Assembly: GCA_963514005.1 (NCBI GenBank)
Contig: OY740801.1
Coordinates: 4,092,001-4,156,000 of the forward strand
Length of the DNA: 64,000 bases
From: Raja brachyura
Lineage: Eukaryota
Reading direction: 5' to 3'
Every line of letters begins with the position of its first letter. Position 1 is the stretch's first letter. Under the pieces are notes generated by a model that did no database searches, had not been told where the DNA came from, and worked only from the letters and a program-made list of their open reading frames with translations. Positions 39,200 to 57,657 of the stretch are shown here, one piece after another. The translations under genes were made by a program, and so were the position numbers.

Positions 39200-39829
39200 C
39201 TGTAAAACAAGGGAATTAAAAGATGGACCATCATTTAAGTCTTTGCCATCTCCATATTGTTTTTCTTTAAATCAAGACTAGAATTCAGTCTGCCTTTAAG
39301 ATGATCAACATATGATCAGATTGGCCGGTGAAGGCGAGGGCTGGAGTGAGAGACACACTTGATGGTGGTGTATCAGTGATCAAGTGTATTAATGCCGCCT
39401 GGGGTAGGGGATATGATGATGATATTTGGGGAATATATTTCGGACCTTAACCTCATTGAAGTCAATGCTAAACAGGGAGATAACGACTGAATATAATTTG
39501 TTCAGTGCCATCTTGGCATTGGTTTAGAATGGCATGCAGACCACTAGCAAGGTGGCAGAGATGAATTAGCTTTGTAGATAAGTGGACAGTATTTTGCAAA
39601 CAGGTATTCCAGGTCAGGGAAGCAGAATTGAGCTATGACCATCACATCAATGCACCATGAAGCATTGACCAACAAAAAAGATGATGCCTGTATGTCACCC
39701 TTGTCGAAGGATTCTGTACGGTCCATGGAATAAATGTTTAAAAAACCCAGGTTGTATAGCAGGGTCAGGTGAACTAGGGACAAGTAATGTTTCAGTGAAA
39801 CAAGAACACAGTAGTCCCTGATGTTTGGG

Positions 39830-40165
39830 TTCGGTGGTGGCACAGCAGTTAAATATCGCAGAGGCCCTGACCTATCCAGACAACAGTGTTCAAATCCCAG
39901 CTGTGAAATATAAATTCAACCAATAATGTAGAATTTCAAGAAAACAAGTGAAAAAAAAATCACAAAAAAAAATCAGCTTGTTGCCCCAAAAAAAATTGTT
40001 CACTCCAGGGGAGAAATTCTGCCACTTGTACCAGGTCTGGTAACTCCTGAAGCAGACAAAGATGGCTGCTTCTTTAAAAAGAATCTCCTCTGAAGTGCCT
40101 AACAAATCAGTCAATTAAGGCATTCGGGAAATGGACAATAAATGCTCCCCTTGTCAGTCATGACT
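39830..40165 (+). mobile_element. Degenerate ancient SINE-like repeat (similar remnants near 27160-27300 and 35545-35670)
   Basis: GTTCAAATCCCA B-box-like motif and a 3' CAATTAAGG...GGACAATAAATGCT tail. Confidence 0.45.
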
Positions 40166-40385
40166 GATCCGATAAAGAAAAATAGTAAAAAAGATAAATA
40201 ACACCATAGTTACTAGATAGTTATAGAAATGAGCAAAAAAAGAACTGTCGCTCAAATGAAAGAAATAATTTACTATACCTTTATCTGACAAAATCAACCA
40301 GAAAGGTTATTTTAGATGTTACTATGGTTATCTAATCAGCTATCTGGATTAACAGAAGGATTTCCCCGACAACAATACATTCACT

Positions 40386-41059
40386 CAGAACTGCCAAGTT
40401 TTGTCAGAGCATTTCAGTATTCTAGTACCTGAAAATCAGTATTTTTACGCGCTGCCATTTTGCCCATGTAAGAGTACAAGAATGCATAACTTTGTAACCA
40501 ATTGACATGTCTTCTACGCACCTTACTTGACAGTGAATTCATTGCCATCTCTTTGCATACTTCTGTTTGAATGGCTGCTTCCTGCTTTTAGCACCAGATG
40601 ATGTAGAAGCCATTTGGAAGCCTCCCTCCCTCGCTCTCTCTCCCTCTCCTTCCTCTTTCCCTCCCTCGCCTTCCTTTTTTTCTCCCTCCCTCTCTTATTC
40701 TCTCTCTCCCTCTCTGAACAGTCTGTGACCCATAGCGCTGTGGCCATAGCGTTATTTGTAAAACCCACAGTGCTATGTGTAAAGGCAATAGAGCTCCACC
40801 TGGGAGCGCTATAATTAGAACCCATAGCGCTGTTCATCATCCAGATCTTGAAATTTAAAATACTAATAGATTTAATCTGCCATAATTTTTAGAATTACAG
40901 TATGACTTTTTATATCCTTGCATTTTTTAAGCAGCAAGATGAAACAGGAAGTCGGGCCGATTTTAAAAAAATCCTTATTTTACAAAGCAAATCCGTAATC
41001 CGTATTCTTATTGCATTTCCGTACCAAATACGAAAAATTCGTACTACTTGGCAGCTATG
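40386..41059. mobile_element. Non-autonomous TIR DNA transposon with 6-bp TSD (hAT-related by inference)
   Basis: Imperfect TIRs CAGAACTGCCAAGT / ACTTGGCAGCTATG. TTCACT is duplicated directly on both flanks (40380-40385, 41060-41065). Internal CT-rich tract and repeated CATAGCGCT motifs. Confidence 0.7.
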
Positions 41060-42945
41060 TTCACTGAGTTAACTGCAAAGGCAAAAATAACCACGTGGCC
41101 TTTGATTCCTAGTTATTCACTTGCACATTCCGGTTACTCTGATAGCACTGCCTGACACAGACATTTCTGTAAGTTGGTCAGCAGATATTTAATTTTATTT
41201 AAATCAGGTTCTGCTCCGAGTTCTTAAGAAGCAAACTTAAATATGCTAATTTGCTGTCAATAATCCTGGTAAGGTATAGAAGCTGGAAGCATCAGCAAAG
41301 ATGAACATTTTAGATAGATTTTAGCTACAGGTTGTGTTTCTGGTCTATTCAATTCATGCTTCAAACAAAATATAACTAATGTATTAGTAACATGTAGTCA
41401 TCTGTGAACTACGATGCTCTCATGATTCATTGTACAGTATAAACAAATGAAACTAGAGATCACGGGGCAGATTTTAACCACAGGAAGAGTAACTATTAAG
41501 CTCCCACTGTTTTTGGTGAGATGCCAAGCCATTTAGAAGCCTGGACTGCAGCTTTAATTCCTCCAAAAAGTATTGTTGGCAATAGACACGTTTCCACGCT
41601 GAACTGCAAAGTTCTTGGTAGCTTAGGCACTCATGCTCCTATTGAACATTATAAAATATATTTAAAAAACCCAACTTTCACATAATTTAGAATGTCAGAT
41701 TTTCAGTGTGGTTGGTTAAATTAAAAAAACCCCACCAGTTTCCATGATACCAACTGTATACACACAGTGGCTTTACTCCCTGGAGCGAGTTCATACTTCT
41801 TGAAACTATATAGATTTTCTTTTCTAATATGCAGCCTTTCAGAAAGCAGCAAGTTAGATTATTCTCACAAGCCAGGCTGTAAATTTAGAAATACATTGTC
41901 TGAAAGAGCAATTGTTGATTTGTTTTCTCAAACCTGCAGAAAAAGTATATTATTCCTCAACCCCACATAAGCTAATACGATTCCCTTTCCACTAACATTT
42001 GGATATGGAATTTCATATCACAATAATCCTCCATGGAAATAGAACCTCTTCCATTATTTTTTCGGTAATTATCTTAGTCCAGACTTCCAGTCGATTACTC
42101 ATTGACTAATGGATATAGTTTTTACATTGATAAGTCTGTGGGGACCAAGGTTCAACTTTGAACAATAGCAGGTCAGGGGGAGTTCCCCCTGCCACGGGTA
42201 CCATGTAATCCTATGCTACCTGCTCCATACATTTTCAGAGTTGCCGATCTGTTTCCAGGAGTTAAATTGAAGCATCAAATTCATTTTCTCGCCTTCCAAC
42301 TTCAACTCTTCCATTTCGACAAAACACACAAAAAGAGAGAAAATTGTCCTGGCTCGAATTTTCTGCAGGCATTACTGTAAACTTAATTGCAATAATTTAG
42401 TTTCTGTACAACTGGCCTGATCTGCAAATTACTGGAAAACAAAGAGTTTATTCATTCATTAGTTTTAAAATCATTTGCACAGGTTCAAAAATTGAACTGC
42501 AAATTAATGGGAAATGAAACAACAAAAACAAGCTTTTGTTTGGAAATAAAAACCTTTGTCATACTAATCCTATGACACATACAGAGCCATGTATCCGTGC
42601 ATGATCTAAAAGTAATAATTTGCAGCTGCAGACTTTACTCATGTCAATTATGACTTGACGTCAATAAAGCTATTGTAAACAGGCTGGGTTAGTTCATCCG
42701 GCAGAAATCTCTTAAAATTTAATATATTAACTAGTTAAATACTCTGCAAATCACATACATCTTCAGATAAAAATAATTGACTAAATGGTTAAAAGCAAAC
42801 TATTAAAAAACTTTATGAATAAACATTTGACAGTTTCCAGGAGAAATTCAATTAAAATTTGCTTTGAAACTAAACTTTAACATTACAGACTTACTGTGGA
42901 TATGGTAAATGCCTTCTCCCTTATCGCAAGTATGTCTTATCATAC

Positions 42946-43310
42946 TTACGATACAATAGAACTTCATTTATCCCAGGAGGGAAATTGATCTGCCAACAGG
43001 CATAAAAACACAAAATACATAATACATGAAATTAAAGTGACGAGTGGAAAGGCTTGGAGGATGTGCAAAGATTGGGGAGGGGAGTCAGTCTACCCCACGA
43101 CAGAAGGGAAAGTTGTTGTAAAGTTTGATAGCGACAGGGATCTCCTGTGGCGTTCTGTGCTGCATCTTGGTGGAACCAGTCTGTTGCTGAAGGTGCTCAT
43201 CAGGTTGACCAGTGTGTCATGGAGGGGGTATGCTGTATTGTCCAGCATCCTCCCCTCCAAGACCACCTCCCATGAATCCAACTCCACCACCAGGAGCCAG
43301 TCTTCCTGAT
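42946..43310 (-). mobile_element. Rex1/Babar-type LINE 3' end
   Basis: ELDSWEVVLEGRM..LDNTAYPLHDTLV..STFSNRLVPPRCSTERHRRS resembles the Rex1-type ORF C-terminus. Confidence 0.75.
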
Positions 43311-43564
43311 TAGTATTGTCTCACAGGTCCTATAGTACATTTTCACCTTCTACAAGTATATTGATATTACCCCTTTATTTTTGGTGCAGTGTGAGAGAGC
43401 TGAGAGTTGGGTTGGAAAGCTATTTCACTGAGTATCAGGCCAATAGTTTGGACTATTAAGTCTCAAAAAATACAAAATATTAAATATACATATATAAAAT
43501 CCCAGAAAAAATGGAACAAAACTGGTGGTAAGGTAACAAATATTTGAGGAGGAAAAGAACCGAC

Positions 43565-44740
43565 TGCATTAGTTAAACAGTCAAATGAAGAGTGTGGGAA
43601 ATGCATGGAGTAACACCAGGCATACCCCAGAATGAGGAATCAACTTGATGAAGCTATAAGGCAGGCCTACCCACATACCAAACAACGTAAGCAGCATGCA
43701 ATAAACAGAACTAAGCAATCCCACATCCAACAGATCAGATTTAAGCTCTACAGTCCTGCATATCCAGTTGTGAATGATGGTGGACAATTAAACACTCACT
43801 GGAGGAGTGGGCTCTACAAATATCCCCATTCTCAATAATGGGGGTACCCAGCACATCAGTGCCAAATAGAAAGCTGAAGCATTTGTGCTGACCTTCAACC
43901 CAAAGTGCTGTGTGGCCTGATAGCATGATAGATGGAATCTTCAGCCAATTCTTGATATCACGTGGAATGAATCAAAACGGTGAAAAGCAAACACTATAGG
44001 ACCCAACAACATTCTGGCGATAGTACAAATGACATGCTCCAGAACTTGCTGCAGCCTTATCTAAGCTGTCCAGTACAGCTACAACATTGGCATCAAGAGG
44101 GCATGACATGAGAATTAAGGGACAGATGTTTAGGGGTAACATGAGGGGGAACTTCTTTACTCAGAGAGTGGTGGCTGTGTGGAATGAGCTTCCAGCAGAA
44201 GTGGTGGAGGCAGGATCAATTTTAACATTTAAAAGTAAAGTGGATAGTTATATGGACGGGAAGGGAATGGAGAAGTATGGTCTGCATGCAGGTAGATGGG
44301 ACTAGGGGAAAATAAATGTTTGGCACGGACTGGAAGGGCCTGTTTCCGTGCTGTAATTGTTATATGGTTATATATGGTTATATGGCATCCATCTGACCAC
44401 GTGGAAAATTGCCCAGATATGTCCTGGCCACAAAAAGCAGGACAATTCTAACCCAGTCAGTTACAATCCTCTAGTCTACTCTCGATCAGGAGCAAAGTGA
44501 TGGAAGGGATAATCTATAACACTATCAAGCCATACTTCCTTAACAACCTATCCACAGAAACTCAGTTTGGATTCCGCCAAAGTCACCCAGTTTCTGACCT
44601 CCAGCGTCCAAACATGGACAAAAGAACTGCGCTACAGTGATGAAATGAGAATAACCACCCTTTAGACCAAATCAGAATTTGATCAAGTATCAACAAGGAG
44701 AACTGGCTAAACTGGAGTCAATGGGAATCAAGGGGTAAAG
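43565..44740 (+). mobile_element. Old LINE reverse-transcriptase fragment (CR1/L2 group) interrupted by a younger CR1 tail
   Basis: APELAAALSKL..YSYNIGI....WKIAQICPGHKKQDNSNP.SY.P..LLSIRSKVMEG...QFGFRQ. Confidence 0.75.
44095..44382 (+). mobile_element. CR1-type LINE 3' end with (GTTATATG)n tail and 7-bp TSD
   Basis: RGHDMRIKG...FFTQRVVAVWNELP. TGGCATC is present on both flanks (44088-44094, 44383-44389). Confidence 0.85.
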
Positions 44741-45999
44741 AGAGTTTGTAGTATCGTTTCAAGAAAACAGTCTCTCCCTCAATGTTAGCAAAACAAGGGA
44801 GGTGGACATCGACTTCAGGAAGCGGAGTGGAGTACATGTTGTAATCTGCATCAAAGATTTACTGCAGCTCCACAATTCTTTGTTGTCAACCCAATTATTC
44901 CATCTAAAATGTTCCACACAAGTACATTTGTCTACACTGTACATCATGAACTGACTGCTTTCCTTTCTAGCTCCTTTCCATATCGCCAGTTGCAACAATT
45001 CACATTGATATGGTGCCTTGGGCAAAAGCAGGCAAAAAAGGAGGAAAAAATGGAACAAGTACCATTTGTGGAGCTGCGAGAATTACATAGAAAGATGTTA
45101 AACATCTGTTCACATCGTAATAACAACCCTCAGTTGACGACTCCAAGACAAATATAAAAAGGTCATAGGAGTAGGAGCATCCATCCACATTTATTTCTAA
45201 TCCTATTTTGCCAGCTTTTTAAAATAGAAAATTGCACTTTATGATTAACACATAACAATGCTATGCTAATTGAAACATTTCAAAGTTTCCTGGGCACTGC
45301 TTTATAAAATGCTTTTGGAATAATCACAACTTGCATTTAAATATTCCCCTTTATGTAATCAGAACCATCCACTACATCACAAAAACTGGTAGGCAATCTT
45401 CTCAGAAACTTTTATTTTATATACAATGATTATGTGTTAATTATAAGAAAAAGATGCAGTTACTTTGGAATAATTATTTAAAAAATCCAATCCCTGGGGT
45501 TCTTTAATTATATCAATTTGGAATAATTTTACACCAGAAACAGGCTGCATTTGTAATTAATCAACTGATAAAACAGATAGTTAATGTTTTAATTCCTGTT
45601 TCATCATTTATCCGTTACAAAATAAAGACCGTGTTATTTTAACTGCATCAAAGAGAAAAACTACTAGATGTTGCTCAAAGACAATTAAAAAGGTCCCCTT
45701 GGCTTAGAAACAAGGCTTGCATGCTCAGAATATTCAATCTTGCTGCAAATTGGGTTATTTATACACATTCGGGACAAAAACAGTATGCTGAAAATGGATG
45801 ACACCGATTAAGCGATGATCTCTGCCGAGAATATGGACTCAAAACAGGATCTATGTACTTTCCAGGCTACACCTTTTCAGGCGATACAATTCCACATTGG
45901 AAAATACCACTAGAGCCAGTCGCATTTCAGGACATTTTTTTGTAAAGAAAATGTTTGCCCAGCAAGGATTCTGATGCTAGGGGCAAAGGAGTATTTATC

Positions 46000-47546
46000 T
46001 TTATTGAAGTGATTAACATGCTGCTGATTTACAATTATATTTTTGTGTAGATTGTAAATAATAAATGACTGTCCAAAGATGGCAAAAATGAAATATTCAC
46101 ACTTACACGCAGACACCAAGTCTAAATCAACCTGGTAAATGACAACTTTTCTTGTGGTTTGTGTTAAATACAATATAGGAACCACAATCAGATTGTGTTA
46201 AGGGATACAACAATCAACATTAACTTACCAACCTAGAAAAATGCACCTCCAACAGCAACTCCACAACCATACACTGTTTGTAAAAACTGAGAAATTTAAA
46301 ACCAATTCTATATATGATATGAGCAGATATTCCACATCACATTCAGCAAATTAAAAGTCTCAGTGAACATAATATAACAATCAAATAGATTGTTGCTCAA
46401 ACACTAATTATACCTAAACATTTCAAACTTTAATTTTATATTGCAAGTTGAAGTATTATAAATTGAAGTCGATCGAAAAACTATTTCCATCCTTACAACT
46501 ATTAATTGGTATTCTCACTCTGGAATAACATTAGCCTTGACTGAATTATCTATGCAGGTTATTGATCTAAACGTGGACCAACAGCCGCAGGTCTCCAACC
46601 AACTTCAGGTTTAATCAATAAAACCATTTCCTTTGATTGAAGTACTTGGGTTTCACTAAGTGACAATATTGTATTTGAAAGTAGACTTCTCTTAAGAGCA
46701 GTGGTCTCAAAATTATACACTTCAATTTTTCAAGAAAAGCTACATACGGCTTTCTATTAGAAATCTGCTGTGCCCCATCTGGAAAACTCACTAGCTTAAG
46801 AATTTTGATACAAAATAAGGATCAATACATAATAAATGTGCCAATGTTTACGGCACAAAAGAATGCCACCCTTAATTTGAATTAATGTAGTTAAAATCCT
46901 ATAGAAACATTTCCTTGTTTAAAGTCTTATTCAATTATGTGGCAAAAATATTAACTCTGGCAAATAACAAAATGGTACAAGCTACAGTTCTAATTTTGTA
47001 AACTTGGGTACATATATTCCCACAAATGGGCTGATTGTCACGTTTTTTAACCCAGCTGTTGAAATGCGATAGGAAAATGTTCCCTGGATAATTAAAACTC
47101 ATTATAAATTGATAAGTTACATTCTAAAAGTAATGATATTCAATAGCAAAAAGAAAAATGAAGCTTCCATTATAGGAAGAGCCTCAGCATTCCAAATAGA
47201 CAATAGACGGAAAGATACAATATAGGAACAATACAAGATTTTTTTTTGTTTTTATTGAAGTGATAAAAAATGGTTCTGATTTACACTGATATTTTTACTT
47301 AGACTGCAAATAATAAATAACTTGTCCAGAGGTGGCAAAAATTAAATATTCATACTTGCACGCAGACACCAAATCTAAACCAATCTGGTAAGAGTGACAG
47401 GCAGCATCTCTGGAAGAAGGGTCTCGGTCCGAAAGGTCACAAATTTCTTCTCTCCAGATGTTGCCCGACCCACTGAGTTACTCCAGCTTTTTATATCTTT
47501 GGTAAGTGTGACAACTATTCTTGCTGTTTGTGTGAAGTACAATCAA
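46000..47546. repeat. Diverged ~200-bp direct duplication (46000-46210 and 47251-47546)
   Basis: Both copies share TTTATTGAAGTGAT...CTGATTTACA...AAATAATAAAT...TGGCAAAAAT.AAATATTCA.ACTT.CACGCAGACACCAA.TCTAAA...TTGTGTTAAG.GATACAA. Confidence 0.85.
47400..47499 (+). mobile_element. 100-bp Penelope-like insertion with 14-bp TSD
   Basis: TGGTAAG(A/T)GTGACA occurs at 47386-47399 and 47500-47513. A short inverted GGCAGCATCTCTGG precedes the forward copy. Confidence 0.75.
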
Positions 47547-48439
47547 TTTGTGTTAAGTGATACAAGTCTTATTTTTTTACATAATTACATCCTCACATCC
47601 AGCCTCATCTAGGTGCAGATATCTGAACAAATACATGTATCAATCCAATGGCCATTTAAAAGAGCAAGTGAGGAAACTCAACAAAAGAGGATATGTAATC
47701 AATAAGTTTCCCTCAAAATCGTTAAAGTGTATTGACTGCCATTGGTTAAGTAAGCAGACCAAACAGTGACACTGATCTTCAAAACCATGATTATGGAAGA
47801 AGCAGGACAGGAAAGAAAGAGGAATCATCTTTTTAACAAAGTGCAGAGAACTGGAAACAGATATTCCAAGATAAAATTCATGTGGCACAGATTAATAGTC
47901 TCAATTAGCACGTTCATTTGCATTACAAATAGACAAACCAGGAATTATTCGTTAATAAGCCAACACTCTGGAAAGAACACTTAACAACTCCCAATGCAAG
48001 TGTAGCAAATGCAGGAAGTTTAGACTTACTGGGCAAGTGCCATCAACAATTTGCTTGTGTTTTACTTCACGTTTATCCAAGGAAACTAGCAGCTTGCTGC
48101 TCTCAACATAGGATCTGAAAGCCCATTCAGTTGAATGGGAATTGTAGTGTCACATGGATGGGGTGTAGTTTGGACGGCAAAATCACCGTAGAATAGAATC
48201 AACATCTTCAAAGGGTTAAACGGTTGTGGAAACTTTAAAAAAATCTATATACACGTATCCTGCGATTCACAAAAAGGGTTAAATTACGAAAACATATTTT
48301 ATTACTTAAGAATTTGCAAATCCTAAAAGCATGTTGTATTATTTTCAATGTAAAATCTCAAGTTGCATGCCAAGGCTCACAAGCTACAGTCAGTCCAAAT
48401 AAACTCAAAATAAGGCTGGGCAAACAACTGAAGTATTAT

Positions 48440-49150
48440 TGGGAAAGCACTTGGGGACCACTCACCATAATTATTATTAGTTTTTAAATAGTCATGGAAA
48501 AGATGATGTCCTAAATTGCTGCAAGGCCAATTTTGATGGTATTGGACTGGAACTTTCAGAAGTGATTGGGGGTGAAGATAAAGGAACTTCTGATATGTAA
48601 AAGGCCTAGTGAGGGTTCAGGGCCAACATGTTCCTGTTATAGCGAAGGGCAAGACTGGCAGGAGTGGGGAGCCCTGGATGACAGGAGATAGAGGGAAAAC
48701 CCCAACGTTTAACGTGTTAACCTGCAATTACAATGGAACGAGAAATGTCATGTGTAGTTTAATTTGTATTATTATGGGACAAATCATGGCAGGATTTTCA
48801 CAGTAAATGGTAGGGTTCTAAGGAATGTTATAGAACGGAGACCTCAGGATGCAAGTACATGGTTCATAAAGATGGAGATATAGGTGGACAGCGATGAAGT
48901 CAGCATTTGGCACTAAAAGCCTTCATTGGTCAGAGTATGGTGTACAGGAGTTGGAACATCATGGTACAACTGTTCAAGACATTGGTAAAGCTGCATTTGG
49001 AGTACTGCGTACAGTTCTGGTAACCTTGCTATAGGAAGGATGCCATTAAGCTGGGAAGGGAAAAAAAAGGGGAACAAACAGGTTTGGAGAATGTTACTGG
49101 GTCTGGAGGGTTTGAGTTGTAAGGAGAGGCTGGACAGGCTGATTTTTTTC
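48440..49150 (+). mobile_element. Old CR1-type LINE fragments
   Basis: Degenerate HLEYCVQFW and LEGLSCKERLDRL motifs. Confidence 0.65.
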
Positions 49151-49494
49151 CCTAGCCATGATAGATACGTGTTCAATACCATGTACACAAATCCTCTGAT
49201 AATAAATGTAGTCCATATCAGCATCTGGTAACACCCAGATCTAAGCAGACAAATAAATAACAGGCAGCATATGTCACACAAGCACCAGATAACATGCATC
49301 TCAGAGCACAGCCTCCTCTTTATCACCAAATCCCCTAAAACAACAACCTGCCAGTCTGAGCAAGGGCGCTGGCAGGGCGCAACACAACAATCAAGTGGGT
49401 CTGTGGCTGATTTTTCACTTCAAAACGCAAGAATATTTGGAGGAAAAAAGGAATTCTACCCATTTTCCTCACCTACATCTGCCACACAAACCAG

Positions 49495-49926
49495 CCTCTC
49501 TTTTATTGACTCCATTTGTACCTAACACTGCCTTGGCAAGGCCAACAGCATAATCAAAGACGAGTCGCACACTGGCCACTCCCTTTTCTCCCCTCTCCCA
49601 TCAGGTAAAAGTTATGGAAGTGTGAAAACGCACACCACTGGATTCAGGGACAGTTTCTTCCCAGCTGTTATAAGCAACTGAATCATCCTACCACAACCAG
49701 AGACTAGGCCTGAACTATTATCTACCTCTTTGGTGACCCTTGGACTATCCTTGATCGGACTTTGCTGGCTTTACCTTGCAGTAAATGCTATTCCCTTATC
49801 ATGTATCTATGCACTGTAAAAGGATCGATTGTAATCATGTCTTGTCTTTCTGTTGACTGGTTAGTACGCAACAAAAAGTTTTCACTGTATCTCAGTACAC
49901 GTGACAATAAACTGAACTGAACTGAA
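49495..49926 (+). mobile_element. Rex1-type LINE 3' end
   Basis: CLGKANSIIKDESHTGHSLFSPLPSGKSY..VKTHT..FRDSFFPAVI, then a 3' UTR ending GTGACAATAAA(CTGAA)n. Confidence 0.8.
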
Positions 49927-50346
49927 TGCGGAGACCAGGTATTTAGCATGAGAAAGAACACACTAGACATGTCAATAATTTACATTGTTCAATGTCTTTA
50001 CTGTTTAACATTCTAAGGTGGTACACAGGAACTCAGTATAATTTTGTCGCATTAAGGGATACATTAGAATCTAATGATTAGATCAGATAAGTAAATGCTT
50101 GGTCAAAGAAACAGTTTTTAAATAACATCTTAAAAACGATGGGCAAGACGTTTGAGGCACAAATTAAACACAACACAAAGAAACAGCATTAATAGTGAAG
50201 CAATGGAAAAGAGGACAAGAGAAGTAGTCATTAAGGTACAGAGATGTGGGAAGAATTTAAGATTGTTAAGAATCAGAGGAATAGAAAGACCAGAGATTCA
50301 AACAACAGAGGCATGATTTTCAACACAGAAGTGTCCACGACCTATA

Positions 50347-50617
50347 GGGTGGCACAGCGGTTGAGCTGCTGCCTCAGTTCCAGGGACCCTGGTTTGTTCC
50401 TAAATACGCATGCTCTCCGTGCGGGGTTTGAACATCCTCCTTGTGAGTTTTCTCCGGGTGCTCCGATTTCCTCCCGCATTCCATGGTAGTGCTAGTTTAA
50501 AGGTTAATTGTTCATGTAATTGTCCCTAGCGTGTAAGACATTGAACTGGTACACAAGTGATCGATGGGCCGAAGGGCTTGTTTCCACATTGTATCTCTAA
50601 AGTGAACTCTAAACTAA
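50347..50617 (+). mobile_element. HE1-like SINE
   Basis: Runs from the GGTGGCACAGCGG head to the GGGCTTGTTTCCACATTGTATCTCTAAA tail. Confidence 0.8.
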
Positions 50618-51451
50618 ATTTGGAACCAATGCGTTTCAGCAACTAAGGGACCATGGTAGAATTGACAAGTTGCTGGTTAGGTTATAGGCAGCTGATTGTG
50701 GGGAAGCTCAATGGAGGGACACATGGTCTTAGGCCAGCTCAAAGAGCATTCAAATTTGTCAGAGATAACAGACATGAGGTAATAACATCGAAAAAAAGTG
50801 ATATGGAAGTTGAAAGTAAAGCTTTTTTTAAAATAAATACTAATGAACAAAATGTACCCCCTCTGGACTTTCTTCACCTTTTATGAGCTCAGCCTCAATA
50901 AGTCTAGAATTTTGCCTTTGTTCTTGATGCAGCTGTTTGGCACAGTAAACAATAGATTATTCCTTTCCAGTGACATCTAGCACAAACCCAAGATATTTTC
51001 ACTGAGCAAGTTTCTATGATTCATCTGTTTGTGCATCTACTTCACAGATCAAAATATTTTTGCAGCATGTCTGGTCTTTTATTTAAATGTCTAAGAGTAA
51101 TACCAACACAAAGCTTTTTGCTGTACCCAGCAAATGTAACAATAATAAACTTTGAACTGACTTTATTCTTAGGTCTTTACATTTTTTGTCTCGCCTTTTA
51201 TTTTCAATTTCAATGGAACCTCCAATTTGTATTCACACCAAAGCCTCCTGCTAAATGTTTATTCTTGTCTTTTTAAACAAATTAAGTTGTCGAAGAGTAA
51301 CAATATTATTGCAAATGTGAAAGCTTCTACCTTTCACAAACTCATGCAAAGATTAAAAATATGAATCACTTTATGAAACAATTATACCAATGAAAGAATG
51401 TCTTGGTCTGGAAAATGTAAAAGACTAATGCCACAAATCAGGATTGAGCAT

Positions 51452-51590
51452 GGAGTGGGAGATTTGAACCTTCATGAGGTCTGCCCTGTTTCGACTAATG
51501 CAATCAACGTGGCGTACACAATCAAATAAGATCAAATAGAACAAGTTATCCTACAACTTTAGGCTGTGCACGCCATATGCAACAAGAAGA
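51452..51590 (+). mobile_element. Short non-LTR retroelement 3' end with (AAG)n tail and 12-bp TSD
   Basis: AGGATTGAGCAT occurs at 51440-51451 and 51591-51602. The insert ends CGCCATATGCAACAAGAAGA. Confidence 0.8.
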
Positions 51591-52429
51591 AGGATTGAGC
51601 ATTATCTGGAACTAGTACAGATATTGGGGGTATCCTTTTAATCTTCTCTGAAATTACATTCATCAACAATTTTGGAGATACTGTTTGTCCAGTAGAAAGA
51701 TAAGTAACACCAACTCGGAAAGCTTCACTCTGTGTCATTGTGACATTAAAATAGTTCTTAAGAAGCAGAAAACGCCTAGAATTTCAAATGTACAAATACA
51801 GCAGAAACTAATTCAGAGATTTTCAAAAGGGAACCTGATAAAAAGAATTGGAAGGGGCATATTTTTCTGGTCTTTGAAGAAAGAGGATGGGAGTGGAACC
51901 ATTGCAAATGCTCTTTGGAGGGCAGCAGGGCATAAATCAGTAAAATGCCCACCTCCCCATGCTGCATCATTGCACAAAGTTCAAAGATAGAATTTTGAAA
52001 ATATAAATATCAATCTGCAAACATCACTAAAATCACAGAATCCCATTTAGCTCACACAGATTTAATCATCTTGTGACCACAAATAAGTGGTTCCAGTGAT
52101 TGTTTCTGGTGGTATTTATGCTTCCTGAACTGTGCTTCATGCAGGTCTTTCCTGCAACTCAAAGATTTGTATCGCTAACACTTGCAAGATCTCAACAAAT
52201 TCACTTCCTTAAAAAAAATTAAGAATTTTTAAAAAAGCCTTGAAATCTAGCAACTTAATATCTCTTCATCAGTCTGAAGGGCTCCAACCCGTAATGTTGT
52301 CTGTCAACTTCCCTCCACAGTTGTTGACTGACCCAGAGTTCCTCCAGCAGCTTTTTTTTTTCTCTAACATTTTTCAATCTACTTTGTCTTTTCTTATGAT
52401 TTATTTTCACCAAAGATTTCACCTGCTTA

Positions 52430-52622
52430 AGGGCCTGTCCCACTTTCACGCCCTATTTTACTCGTGGGCATTTTTCATCGGGCTAAAAAAACGGCCCGAC
52501 CTACTTGATGCCACGAGCACCTACGACTAGCATCACGACCTACCTACGACCTCGTGGCAACCATGCTGCGAGTATGAGTAAAGGACAAACTCGGCAGAGG
52601 TCATGAAAGTGGGACAGACCCT
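52430..52622. mobile_element. PIF/Harbinger-type MITE (193 bp)
   Basis: TIRs AGGGCCTGTCCCACTTTCA / TGAAAGTGGGACAGACCCT, TTA on both flanks, and internal CCTACGAC repeats. Confidence 0.8.
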
Positions 52623-53573
52623 TTAATGGCGTAGTCTTTCAGCAGCTGGAGTAATTCAGTGGGACAGGCACCGTCTCTGGAGAGAAGGAATGGGCGACGT
52701 TTGGGTCGAGACCCTTCTTCAGACTGATAAAATTAAAACAATAAAAAGTAGATGTGCATATTTAGCCAGCTGTTTTATGGACATCAAACACGCAACCAAG
52801 CTAACAAAGATTTAAAAGTGTCACTAATGAATTGTATCATTGGTGTAATTCACTTTTGGTCATTTAGTTTAGTTTAGTTTATTCCCACATAAAATCAAAT
52901 TGTTCCTTTGATATCATAAAGATAATTACTGAATATGTGAATTGTAAGTTTTGCCACAGATTAAATTTTACATAATGATGTTAGTAGGGAATTAGGTTGA
53001 ATTAAATTAGGTAATTGAAAGTGGAAATTTATAATAGGGATACACCCACATACATCATAATTGCAGTGTCCCAAAATCTTTGGTTTCTTAAGCACTTACT
53101 TAACTCAAAACTAGAAGGTTTACAATTCTAAATGAAGCACTCTTCCCTTCAATTAAATGTTCAATTAAAACATTCCAAGATTCTAATGTACGCAGTCTTT
53201 TGAGATGGAGATTTAATTGCCACCCTACAGGATGCATCAAGGAACACATACACACAGTATTTTATCTTCAACTTAAAGTACAACAAAAGTGCTACAGTGC
53301 CAACAGAGGCCTACAGTATATTAAACACATTTACTTTCGTTTCAGCTGATATTGAGGCAACTTTGTTAAATAAGCAGGGCAAGGTACAGTTTATGGTTTT
53401 AACTCAGCCCTTGGGAGCAGTTTTGTTCCAGTGGCGTAATCATCACAAAGAAAGCAGAGTTAAGATTCCTGTTAGTGGGGATGTCAAAGGAAAACACTGA
53501 AAAAATTTGCTTCAGAAACAGCATGGTGGGGGGGGGGGGGGGGTTTAATGGCATTGCTGACTTTTTCCAGATA

Positions 53574-55114
53574 CAGTGTGCTTCATAATGTTTGGGACAA
53601 AGACCCACCATGTATACATTTTAGTTTCACCATGCAGAAATTACAGCAGTTTATATATATATACCCCCCATTTCAGGGCACCATAATCTTTGGGACACAG
53701 TTATGCCATGTAAACAAAAGTAGTCATGTTTAGTATTATGATGCATATCCTTTTTCATGCAATGACTGCTTGAAGTTTGCGATTCGTGGACATCACCAGT
53801 TGCATCTTCTCTGGTGATGCTCTGCCAGCCATCTTTAGCTTATGCTTGTTTTGGGGACTAGTCCCCTCAGTTTTATTTTCAGCATAAAAGGCATGCTCAA
53901 TTGGGTTCAGATCGGGTGATTGACTTGGCCACTCAAGAATTTACAATTTTTTAGCTTTGAAAAACTCCTTTGCTGCTTTAGCCGTATGTTCGGGATCATT
54001 GTCTTGCTGTAGAATGAACCGGCGGACAATGAGTTTTCAGGAATTTGTTTGAACTTGTGCAGATAGGGTGTGTCTATACGCTACAGAATTCATTATAGTA
54101 TGACCATCAGCAGTTGTATCATCAATGAAGATAAGTGAGCCAGTACCTTCCGCAGCCATACATGCACAGGTCATAACACCCCCACCACCGTGTTTCACAG
54201 ATGAGGTGGTATGCTTTGGATCTTGGGCAGTTAATTCTCTCCTCCATACTTTGCTCTTGCCATTACTTTGATATTAGTTCATTTTCATCTCATCTGTCCA
54301 CAAGGCCTTTTTTCAGAACTGTGGTTGCTCTTTTAAGTATTTCTTGGCAAACTGTAAACTGGCCATCCTATTTTTGCTGCTAACCAGTGGTTTGCATCTA
54401 GCTCTCTATTGCTCTCTGTATTTCTGTTCATGAAGTCTTCTGCGGACAGTGGTCATTGACATAACCGCACCTGACTCCTGAAGAGTGTTTCTGATCTGTC
54501 GGACAGGTGTTTGGCGATTTTACTTTATTATAGAGAAAATTCTTCTTTCACCAGCTGTGGAGATCTTCCTTGGCCTGCCAGTCCGTTTGCGATTAGTAAG
54601 CTCATCAATGCTCTCTTTCTTCTTAATGATGTTCCAAACAGCTGATTTTGGTAAGCCTAAGGTTTGGCTGATGTCTCTAACAGTTTTATTCTTCTTTCTC
54701 AGTCTCGTAATGGCTTCTTTGACTTTCATTGGCACAACTTTGGTCCTCATGTTGATAAACAGCAATAAAGGTTTCCAAATGTGATGGAAAGACTGGATCA
54801 AAGACTAGGTTCTGAGAGCTTTCTTATACCTGCTTTAAGGAGGCATTTAAACACACCTGAGCAATTACAAACACCTGTGAAGCCATGTGTCCCAAACATA
54901 TGGTGCCCTGAAATGGGGGGACCATCTATGAACACAGCTGCAATTTCTCTGTGGTAAAACCAAAATGTATAAAAAACACCCTTTATTAAAATCTGACAAT
55001 GTGCACTTTAACCACATGTGATTTTTTTTCTCCAATTACAAATCTCAAATTGTGGAGTAAAGAGGCAAATAAATAAATGATGCGTCTTTGTCCGAAACAT
55101 TGTGGAGGGCACCG
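53574..55114 (-). mobile_element. Second copy of the same Tc1 (DD34E) transposon, defective
   Basis: TA flanks and the same TIRs, the lower-coordinate one with an internal deletion. N-terminal MRTKVVPMKVKEAITRL...RKRTGRPRK (paired-like HTH + GRPR). Catalytic QQDNDPEH...WPSQSPDLNPIE has 34 codons between D and E, including one in-frame stop. Confidence 0.93.
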
Positions 55115-55517
55115 TACACACACTCTCCCCTAAGAGTAAACTAGATCCACAAAATAATGATTTATTTCACCGAGCAAAACACAAAGTGCTGGAGGAACCC
55201 AGTGGACGAGGCAGCATCTCTAGAGGGCAATGGACAGGCAATGTTTCGGGTCGGGGCCCTTCTGCAGACTGGTCATAAAGATAATCACTGAAGATACAGA
55301 TTTGGGAGGTTTTGTCACTGCATTAACATTTTTGAAAGATGATTTTAGTAGGGATTTACAGTTTGAATTAAATCAACCAATGTTTTAATCGAAAGCACAC
55401 TGTACACACGCACTATAGGGAGGTTGCACGGCAGTCCAGGTCACGACCCGCGACCCGTACTGTTGCCACGCAACGCCAACTGGAGTACACGCGATGAACT
55501 GCAGGTAAGCACTTACC

Positions 55518-55826
55518 ATGGCTTCCAATGTCACAGACCTGTTAAAAACTGCCAAAATCGTCAATACTTGCGCTGTAAATAATTATGGAAATTGGGGTAA
55601 CTGTGAGAGAAATTTATCCTACTTCAGAATTCCAAAAGTGAGGAGAAATGAGGGTACAGAGAAGCGACAGCTGAAGGGACAACAACAGCTAAAGTGGTTG
55701 GCGAACATTGGCCCTGCAGATATCAAGATTGAAAATATTTGGAATGATCACTTTTGCTCACTGCATTTCATCACAAGTAAGGCATTATTTGTGATTTCTT
55801 TGGTATCTAAAAAGTTTCAAAAGTGA
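55518..55826 (+). pseudogene. THAP zinc-finger domain remnant (left arm)
   Basis: IVNTCAVNNYGN...SYFRIPKV...KWLANIG...FCSLHFI. The second Cys is replaced by Tyr. A GTAAG donor-like site follows the HF motif. Confidence 0.7.
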
Positions 55827-56425
55827 TAAAGCTGGCTGTAAAATTTAAAAATCGCCCATGGTTCTCAAGTGGGTTTTTACATGCAAAAATAAAATGTTTC
55901 TGAAGATAAATTTATCATTTTAAATCACAAACCATACGTGGGTTTTGAATTACATTTTACTCAGATGCAAGCCAAGGAATGGATTAATTGTTAGTTGTTA
56001 ATTGGACATAATCAACCTCAGATATTGACAATATCTTTGAAAGGGAGTGGGTGTTCAAGCTGTCAGGACATTTTATTATTTGCCAAAATATACATCACAA
56101 TAACTTAATGACAGAAAACTTACTTTTCCACACACCACTCGTTAAGTCTGATAAATTTAGCTCCAGAAGGATTTTCTTTTTCTAAATTGTCAATTTATTG
56201 AGGTTGATTATGTCCAATTAACAGCTAACAATTATGCCATTCCTTCGCTTGCATCCGAGTAAAATGTAATTCAAAACCACATATTGTTTACGATTTTTTT
56301 TCTTTTTGCATGTAAAAACCCACTTGAGAACCATGGGCGATTAAAAAAATTTACAGCCAGATTTATCACTACTGAAACTTTTTGGATACCCAAGGAATTA
56401 AGAAAAAACACAAATAATGCCTTAC

Positions 56426-56645
56426 TTTTGATGAAATGCAGTGAGCAAACGCAATAATTCCCAATATTTTCAATGTTGATATCTATACGGCCAATGTTCG
56501 CCAACCACTTTAGCTGTTGTTGTTCCTTCAGCTGTCACTTCTCTCTACCATCATTTCACCTCACGTTTGGAATTCTGAAGTAGGATAGATGTCTCTCACG
56601 GTTACCCCGATTTCCACAATTATTTACAACGCAAAATTGACCGTT
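56426..56645 (-). pseudogene. THAP zinc-finger domain remnant (right arm)
   Basis: CVVNNCGNRGNRERHLSYFRIPNVR*NDGREK*QLKEQQQLKWLANIGRIDINIENIGNYCVCSLHFIK, followed by gtaagg. It has two in-frame TGA stops and no intact start. Confidence 0.7.
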
Positions 56646-56785
56646 TCGGCAGTTTTAAACAGGTAAGAAAGTACGTGTTTCGTGTATTAACAGTGTAGGC
56701 CGGAAGCTGCCATGTCCTCCACATGGATCGAGTCGTTCAATGCGTCGTGCCCTTTGACCCGATTACCTTATGTGCAACCCCTTAT

Positions 56786-57375
56786 ACACATGTACACACG
56801 CACAATGCACACGTACACACACAACACACAGTATACACACACAATTTACATGTAGACGCAATGAACACACACGCAATGTACACACAATACACATTACACA
56901 TGTATACACACACACAATGTACACACACAATTTACATGTACACGCAATGAACACACACACAATGTACACACACGATACACATGTACACACAATTTACATG
57001 TACACGCAATGAACACACACAATACACATGTACACACACAATGTACATACAATTTACATGAACACACAATGAACACACACACGATGTACACGCAAAATAC
57101 ACACACAACGTACACAGACGCAATGTACACACACGCAATGTACATGTAAACACACACAATAGACATGTACCTGTATACACACACAATATACACACACAAT
57201 GTACATACAATTTACATGAACACGCAATGAACACACACACATGATGTACATGCAATGAACACACACACACACGATGTACACGCAAAATACACACACAACG
57301 TACACACACGCAATGTACATGTAAACAAACACAATAGACATGTACCTATATACACACACACACACACACTATACA
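56786..57375. repeat. Compound (CA)n-rich minisatellite with AATGTAC/AATGAAC units
   Basis: About 590 bp of mostly alternating CA/TG/TA, with higher-order re-duplicated blocks (e.g. GATGTACACGCAAAATACACACACAACGTACAC at ~57083 and ~57273). Confidence 0.95.
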
Positions 57376-57384
57376 CGTATGTAC

Positions 57385-57657
57385 CTTAATGACATTTTCG
57401 AAGATAGTGTCCCTGAACTCCTCCAGTGCCTTGCTGTCGAAGTCCTTGCCGTGGATGATCCTCATCTGCTTGAGGAAGGTGCTCTTGCCGCTCTCGCCGG
57501 CGCCGAGCAGCAGGATCTTGACCAGGCGCCTCACGTAGCGCCGTTCGCGGGCCAGCGACGCGTCGATCTGTCGGCTGCGGCGGCGCTGCGCCCGCTCACT
57601 CTGGCTGGAGCGGCAGGCGGGGAAACAGGCGCCGAGGCGCTGCACCAGCTCCGCCAT
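57385..57657 (-). CDS. GNA12: GNA12 coding exon 1 (91 aa, N-terminal helix and P-loop)
   Basis: ATG at 57657 is in strong Kozak context (gagATGG). Encodes [15 protein letters not shown]...[27 protein letters not shown]...[11 protein letters not shown], then the donor AAG|gtacat. The ORF-track start at 57774 is a TTG. Confidence 0.95.

Follow-up and report, generated by a model that had tools for sequence, protein, structure and literature searches.

Foldback (FB) elements carry long terminal arms composed of modular tandem repeats. In Galileo, a member of the P superfamily, more than 500 bp of the transposase ORF were recruited into both terminal inverted repeats (TIRs) in Drosophila willistoni, a feature that the excerpted text of that study called unique to Galileo in 2014 (PMC4168063). 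In maize, Mu killer and the Ac composite insertions are single loci for which the excerpted accounts report demonstrated siRNA and silencing (PMC3440606; bioRxiv 10.1101/2020.01.07.897926).

ISL2EU transposons, of the PHIS superfamily, are described in excerpts of two papers as duplicating AT on insertion, measuring about 4.1–4.3 kb and encoding a THAP–HTH–DDE transposase together with a second, YqaJ gene (PMC4122938, PMC4482050); their TIRs usually start with GG, and their target is A|AT|T (PMC4482050). The excerpted text of these two papers describes no non-autonomous ISL2EU form with an inverted THAP exon, and that of a third reports that vertebrates outside the teleosts, among them elephant shark, gar and coelacanth, yielded no ISL2EU (PMC9179366). 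We found no literature on ISL2EU in skate and none on palindromic non-autonomous ISL2EU; the family described below may already be catalogued in Repbase, Dfam or species libraries.

The window, the whole 64,000-nucleotide stretch of Raja brachyura DNA that was analysed, holds an element of 1367 bp (55417–56783) with an AT duplication and two inverted arms. We read it, with a probability of about 0.8, as a decayed copy of a multicopy ISL2EU derivative whose second arm is an inverted duplicate of transposase exon 1, likely produced by template switching; it would have been mobilised by its parent, and its hairpin is likely incidental.

The 5′ target-site duplication (55415–55416), placed by family flanks and the empty-site test described below, is followed by the left TIR, AGGGAGGTTGCAC (55417–55429, plus strand), which was read off the sequence and whose first 20 bases have matches across the genome. 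This TIR begins a piece of the parent’s left end (55417–55542, plus strand) that includes the start codon of the parent’s YqaJ gene at 55518. At junction 1 (55538–55542), with a microhomology CCYGT read by eye, the left end meets an inverted copy of the N-terminal THAP part of transposase exon 1 (55557–55776, plus strand; donor GT at 55777) and a copy of transposase intron 1 that ends before the acceptor (55777–56101, plus strand). Junction 2 (56099–56101; AAT, again by eye) leads into an inverted scrap of about 50 bases from the 5′ part of the parent’s YqaJ gene (56099–56150, minus strand). The beginning of the standard right arm, and then a fourth junction that lengthens this arm, occupy 56151–56185, an arrangement common to loci L002 and L099. 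The right arm (56186–56664, minus strand) is transposase intron 1 and exon 1 in the parent’s own position and orientation, with the right THAP pseudo-exon at 56426–56644 (minus strand; donor GT at 56425). The parent’s right end (56665–56783, plus strand) closes with the right TIR, GTGCAACCCCTT (56772–56783, read off the sequence), and the 3′ AT duplication (56784–56785).

The initial annotation had outlined exactly this 1367-bp unit, with its coordinates, short TIRs and AT flanks. Its estimate of 80–85% identity between the arms approximates the value that counts gaps (83%) but falls short for aligned bases, of which 421/467 (90%) are identical between 55537–56032 and 56186–56664. Its term ‘fold-back transposon’ does not hold in the sense of the Foldback family, as the arms are non-terminal and lack modular tandem repeats, the only tandem repeat in them being one 21-base array of 7-mers. 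Rfam gave no match for the element.

A DNA search of the 2.7-Gb genome yielded 2365 first-look candidates, 40 of which were scored. The palindromic layout, whose recurrence the annotation had left to be checked, is found genome-wide: a 28-base pattern across the central junction (junction 2) occurs, with up to two mismatches, at at least 304 places (control 0). With the same tolerance the first 20 bases of the left end have 1100 matches (control 2), and a right-end 20-mer has 1267 (control 4). Among the first 40 exact left-end matches, taken whatever their interior, an inverted arm follows directly in 14, and both THAP arms lie within 2.4 kb in nine of these; the palindromic form thus makes up roughly a third of elements with these ends, and we infer several hundred palindromic copies. 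At 79 junction-bearing loci, which include ones chosen for their likeness to the window copy, the left end lies upstream in 41 and the right end in five, two are flipped (L099 and L113) and the upstream side is unassigned in 31. The window copy, L002 and L099 share the fourth junction, their right arm being longer by about 115–125 bases.

Other interiors occur between the same ends. In 20 of the 40 sampled left ends the interior is GC-rich filler unrelated to the element; these copies form a sister non-autonomous family, in which 300–1000 bases of foreign, GC-rich DNA containing G-rich repeats separate the two ends (L146, L151–L154, L156, L157, L160, L163–L165, L167, L169–L173, L175, L180 and L183). 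This filler is possibly a captured CpG-island fragment of Pack type; a Pfam scan of one example (L164) gave no match in six frames. L180 (479–1598, oriented coordinates) and L137 are hybrids of the filler and palindromic families within one element. A further, single-armed deletion family of about 1.5 kb (L074, L077, L078 and L086) retains parent pieces 34–184, 1724–2537 and 3531–4094.

AT precedes 43–44 of 47 left ends and follows 37–38 of 55 right ends; a T precedes the AT in 34 of the 47, and GGG comes after one A in 43, an A that the empty-site count puts inside the element. Of 37 full elements, eight besides the window copy sit in repeats with empty paralogues. Six of the eight are consistent with four bases in excess of a GGG..CCC core (A, T and AT), two of these six with one further terminal C or G; of the exceptions, L004 gave six extra bases and L010 was mixed. 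By this test the termini therefore read AGGG...CCCT with an AT duplication, so the boundaries first drawn were right. A TA duplication at ATAT would make the empty sites two bases shorter; as they are four bases shorter, this reading was rejected. The 2-bp AT duplication is common to parent and derivative. With both termini of the parent, no coding capacity and many copies, the palindromic elements bear out the proposal of a non-autonomous ISL2EU derivative.

The annotation had also suggested looking for an autonomous partner with a YqaJ gene, and one of that type was found. A YqaJ search returned 17 matches, four of them inside elements with the same ends (L048, L049, L054 and L058). The parent layout, about 4.1 kb long in L049, comprises the left end, a SWIM–YqaJ–PHD gene, a convergent THAP–HTH_Tnp_4–DDE_Tnp_4 transposase gene and the right end. 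In L049 the transposase domains lie on one strand (THAP, E 4e-11; HTH_Tnp_4, E 3e-14; DDE_Tnp_4, E 3e-41); in L054 the gene on the opposite strand has YqaJ (E 4e-14), PHD and a weak SWIM match. The assignment goes by domain content, two-gene layout and AT duplication, relatives carrying the same Pfam set, and as judged by these features the parent fits the two-gene definition of ISL2EU. It has a single THAP exon, at its right end. None of the four parent-type loci shows a THAP arm behind the left end, and none has more than one arm; the palindrome therefore arose secondarily, by rearrangement.

In L049, position 1747 is joined to 2119 across a GT..AG gap in contigs of runs X8 (guessed to be RNA) and X3 (flagged as probably DNA), and database gene models of the little skate splice at this same point. 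The arms’ GTAAG, previously called donor-like, is therefore the true transposase donor. The best relatives of the transposase are Leucoraja erinacea proteins (87, 80 and 75%), followed by two other records at 71 and 68% and by matches of about 40–59% in marine invertebrates, teleosts and further records, a ranking that by itself makes a skate the most likely host. Three L. erinacea transposases (P0003, P0127 and P0128) are near-identical, have an intact D-D-E and lie on different chromosomes, which suggests that an ISL2EU subfamily was active in little skate until recently.

The spliced transposase frame of L049 (1528–1747 and 2119–3386, plus strand; G000:C19, about 10822528–10824386) is open over 495 aa, the only full-length stop-free transposase among 46 listed matches; the YqaJ gene and termini of this copy are broken. 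It has a 7-residue deletion and several unusual substitutions in common with LOC129707898 (Leucoraja, little skate) and LOC116985328 (Amblyraja, thorny skate), in both of which the catalytic Glu is Lys, and near-identical contigs occur in the RNA-guessed runs X1, X3 and X5. L049 may be a domesticated ISL2EU gene, a candidacy against which its dN/dS from the family majority (1.07) speaks.

Several other insertions and frames were seen around these loci. In L048 (1500–6000) a DIRS-like retrotransposon stands in place of the transposase gene, with reverse transcriptase, RNase H and tyrosine-recombinase-like frames recognised by eye. A repeat of about 1 kb lies between the parent’s two genes in L054 (5962–6985), with two more copies near another parent (L058, 1368–2401 and 2610–3640). 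Long open YqaJ frames of 316–389 aa in L031, L032, L045 and L033 show no match to the window element; the first three are clustered on one contig (G000:C14:29.04-29.09 Mb) and may be host genes or belong to another family.

Laid out in parent coordinates, the window copy consists of pieces 34–129, 3989 to 3441 reversed, 481 to 439 reversed, and 3509–4094. Microhomologies of 5, 3 and 2 bases (CCYGT, AAT and GA; by eye) recur family-wide at the junctions, although 2–3-base matches can be chance. Repair synthesis in an excision gap could have started from the left end and switched strands close to the right end, copying exon 1 and intron 1 backwards; from there it would have jumped to the YqaJ gene and rejoined the right arm. 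Products of this kind are usually explained by template switching during gap repair, according to the excerpted text of PMC4168063, and we infer the same here. The single-armed deletion precursor through which a stepwise route would pass was not seen at any of the first 30 exact junction matches (30/30), a point against this derivation. In a tree of arms, 47 left arms and the deleted parent L080 fall on one side and five other parents on the opposite side (support 99/91); with a midpoint root and bootstrap values that had not settled, this is consistent with a single origin. Later exchange between arms may have flipped the centre in some copies, and the form with two right ends could have come first, through one fold-back, or later, by conversion, the tree giving no order. 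To judge from the shared ends, the family was likely spread by the parent’s transposase.

That the arms encode a THAP domain was checked against Pfam, where both exceed the 23.9-bit cut-off (left, 24.3 bits, E 5.4e-05; right, 41.1 bits, E 3.1e-10). They do derive from the transposase’s own THAP exon and its true donor, as proposed, but the domain is truncated: both arms cover profile positions 1–60 of 87, where the spliced parent protein covers 1–87, and the last Pro of the complete pattern (C2CH with invariant P, W, F and P) lies in exon 2 and is absent from both. In the left arm the second Cys has become Tyr and the THAP ATG has decayed to ATC; in the right arm the start codon has decayed to ACG, with a 1-base loss just after it and two TGA stops. 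The 102-codon open frame of the left arm with its lost Cys, and the two TGA stops of the right, had been noted correctly, but the ATG of that frame (55518) is the start of the YqaJ gene and not of THAP.

The host gene is GNA12, on the minus strand: its last exon reaches 313 bits with the Galpha12 chain 1zca, whereas Galpha13 chains give no more than 249. Exon 1 by itself could not tell GNA12 from GNA13 and was rejected as an identifier; the last exon separated them. The element lies in intron 1 (39200–57384, minus strand), as had been proposed, and ends 601 nt from the donor of coding exon 1 (57385–57657, minus strand), close to the 600 nt first estimated. A CA-rich minisatellite at the start of this intron (55396–55416 and 56786–57369) is split by the insertion; with this satellite as flank, the search for the window copy’s own empty site gave ambiguous alignments. 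A Tc1/mariner-like transposase remnant, recognised by eye from ORFs, adjoins the element (54037–54804, minus strand). Contigs of run X13 (organism E) bridge both insertion junctions, and those of run X11 (organism D, possibly the source species) bridge the right one, so the insertion is older than at least one divergence between close relatives; a contig of run X15 (organism F) enters the element by only 26 bases.

For the pre-mRNA strand the predicted folding energy is −756 kcal/mol, compared with −334 ± 11 in 20 dinucleotide shuffles, and the fold contains 469 long-range pairs and uninterrupted helices of 40, 35, 30, 26 and 25 bp counting G-U; the duplex of about 480 bp suggested earlier for GNA12 pre-mRNA thus has a predicted counterpart of 469 bp. 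In 22 two-armed copies, arm identity within a copy (89.1%) is close to that between copies (88.6%); homogenisation of arms at single loci was not seen overall in this set, and pairing between the arms, on this comparison, appears not to be maintained. Some exchange did nevertheless occur in a few copies, as the arms of L026, L006 and L097/L098 group together in a rough tree. At non-CpG sites the two arms of the window copy differ from the family majority by 5.5% and 6.0%, sufficient to explain why they are 10% apart; the copy would thus have entered GNA12 intron 1 while its arms were still almost identical, and drifted afterwards.

Two alternatives would deny the element its family or its non-coding nature. 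That two single-armed elements were inserted tail to tail in a single event, or that the assembly is at fault, is hard to square with the single pair of termini and single AT duplication, or with the same junctions at at least 304 places; the junction also occurs in contigs of 4/4 runs under three organism labels. Contigs over the element derive from many paralogous copies. Nothing was found in favour of this reading, and the multicopy junctions and the contigs of these runs refute it. The arms might instead encode a THAP-only repressor or a THAP–Galpha12 fusion exon, since the left frame is open over 102 codons from the YqaJ ATG, which stands in frame 13 codons upstream of the THAP exon, and the donor is the one used by the transposase. 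Against a protein stand the truncated profile, the missing fourth invariant Pro and the lost Cys; in THAP1, the excerpted text of PMC3479173 reports, DNA binding disappears when any one of the Zn ligands or invariant residues is lost. The upstream ATG is kept in only 10 of the 38 left arms scored, the exon frame is open in 26 of 105 arms, and dN/dS is ~1.0 over these 105 (left 1.25, right 0.92), with no purifying selection on the exon seen in them: the arms decay neutrally. A THAP–Galpha12 splice would be out of frame, as the THAP donor is in phase 1 and GNA12 exon 2 begins in phase 0. A protein product is largely refuted and, in our estimate, highly improbable.

Two further alternatives give the hairpin a function. 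The GNA12 copy might be co-opted as an intronic duplex that is ADAR-edited or affects exon-1 splicing, as its 601-nt distance from the donor, the fold predicted on the pre-mRNA strand and an insertion that is not private (bridged in organisms D and E) could suggest; but the copy ranks only 9/16 in identity among comparable arms, it is one among at least 304 similar copies, and neutral intron DNA is also expected to persist across close relatives. We consider co-option improbable; a role in GNA12 is unsupported by the sequence, and the element is probably immaterial for GNA12 biology. Inverted Alu pairs undergo editing, and editing of this hairpin is by analogy plausible. An unlikely possibility is that hairpin RNA of transposase exon 1 gives rise to small RNAs that silence the parent family, as with Mu killer in maize. 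Transcription is possible from a promoter retained in the left end or by read-through from host genes such as GNA12; the 469-bp predicted duplex has helices of up to 40 bp counting G-U, the start region of the YqaJ gene is kept in the left end, and of the 327 21-mers in the right end and exon 1 of L049, 33 are present without mismatch in the window element. L049, with its still open 495-aa frame and apparent orthologues in two other skates, could be a present-day target, and the excerpted accounts of the maize loci supply precedents (PMC3440606; bioRxiv 10.1101/2020.01.07.897926). On this account, which we doubt to the same degree, the element would be a self-spreading ‘transposon killer’ that retained its two ends, was multiplied to hundreds of sites by the very enzyme it is able to silence, ended its family’s burst and may still tune L049; whichever way round it sat in a host transcript, it would supply a hairpin. 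The arms, however, have not been kept complementary, and hundreds of copies were amplified, so the family’s own spread was not stopped at once. Long-dsRNA RNAi is also weak in most vertebrate somatic cells, which speaks against such silencing. We therefore retain the reading of a parent-mobilised derivative, in which the predicted hairpin of GNA12 pre-mRNA is probably incidental, might be edited and would have no selected role.

Set beside the described systems, the parent resembles ISL2EU in its AT duplication, size and two genes, and may differ in its termini, which read AGGG...CCCT by the empty-site test where a GG start is usual, and in its target, with T rather than A before the AT at 34 of 47 left ends. 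It would place ISL2EU in a cartilaginous fish, contrary to the teleost-only view among vertebrates in the excerpted text of PMC9179366. Foldback elements share long inverted arms able to pair, but the arms here are non-terminal, come from coding sequence and lack modular tandem repeats. The nearest functional precedents are Mu killer and the Ac composite insertions which, in the excerpted accounts, also have an inverted transposase duplication beside a terminus, forming a hairpin transcribable from a host or element promoter. An inverted duplication of transposase sequence, the mark of killer-type alleles, is present here too, but in a vertebrate element that has two working-type ends and hundreds of copies and is known from DNA alone. 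If the hairpins yield small RNAs, these hundreds of natural copies would test whether animal DNA transposons spawn mobile silencers. Galileo is the nearest structural precedent, with transposase sequence in both arms there as here. It belongs to another superfamily and duplicated the final part of its ORF, whereas the skate element duplicated the 5′ THAP exon and intron; the arms here are subterminal, behind about 120 unlike bases, and one rearrangement appears to have founded hundreds of copies. After Galileo, the palindromic family is the second example, this time from a vertebrate and a different superfamily, of a non-autonomous element with transposase coding sequence in both arms, and its parent, breakpoints, flipped isomers and two-right-end form all lie within one genome.
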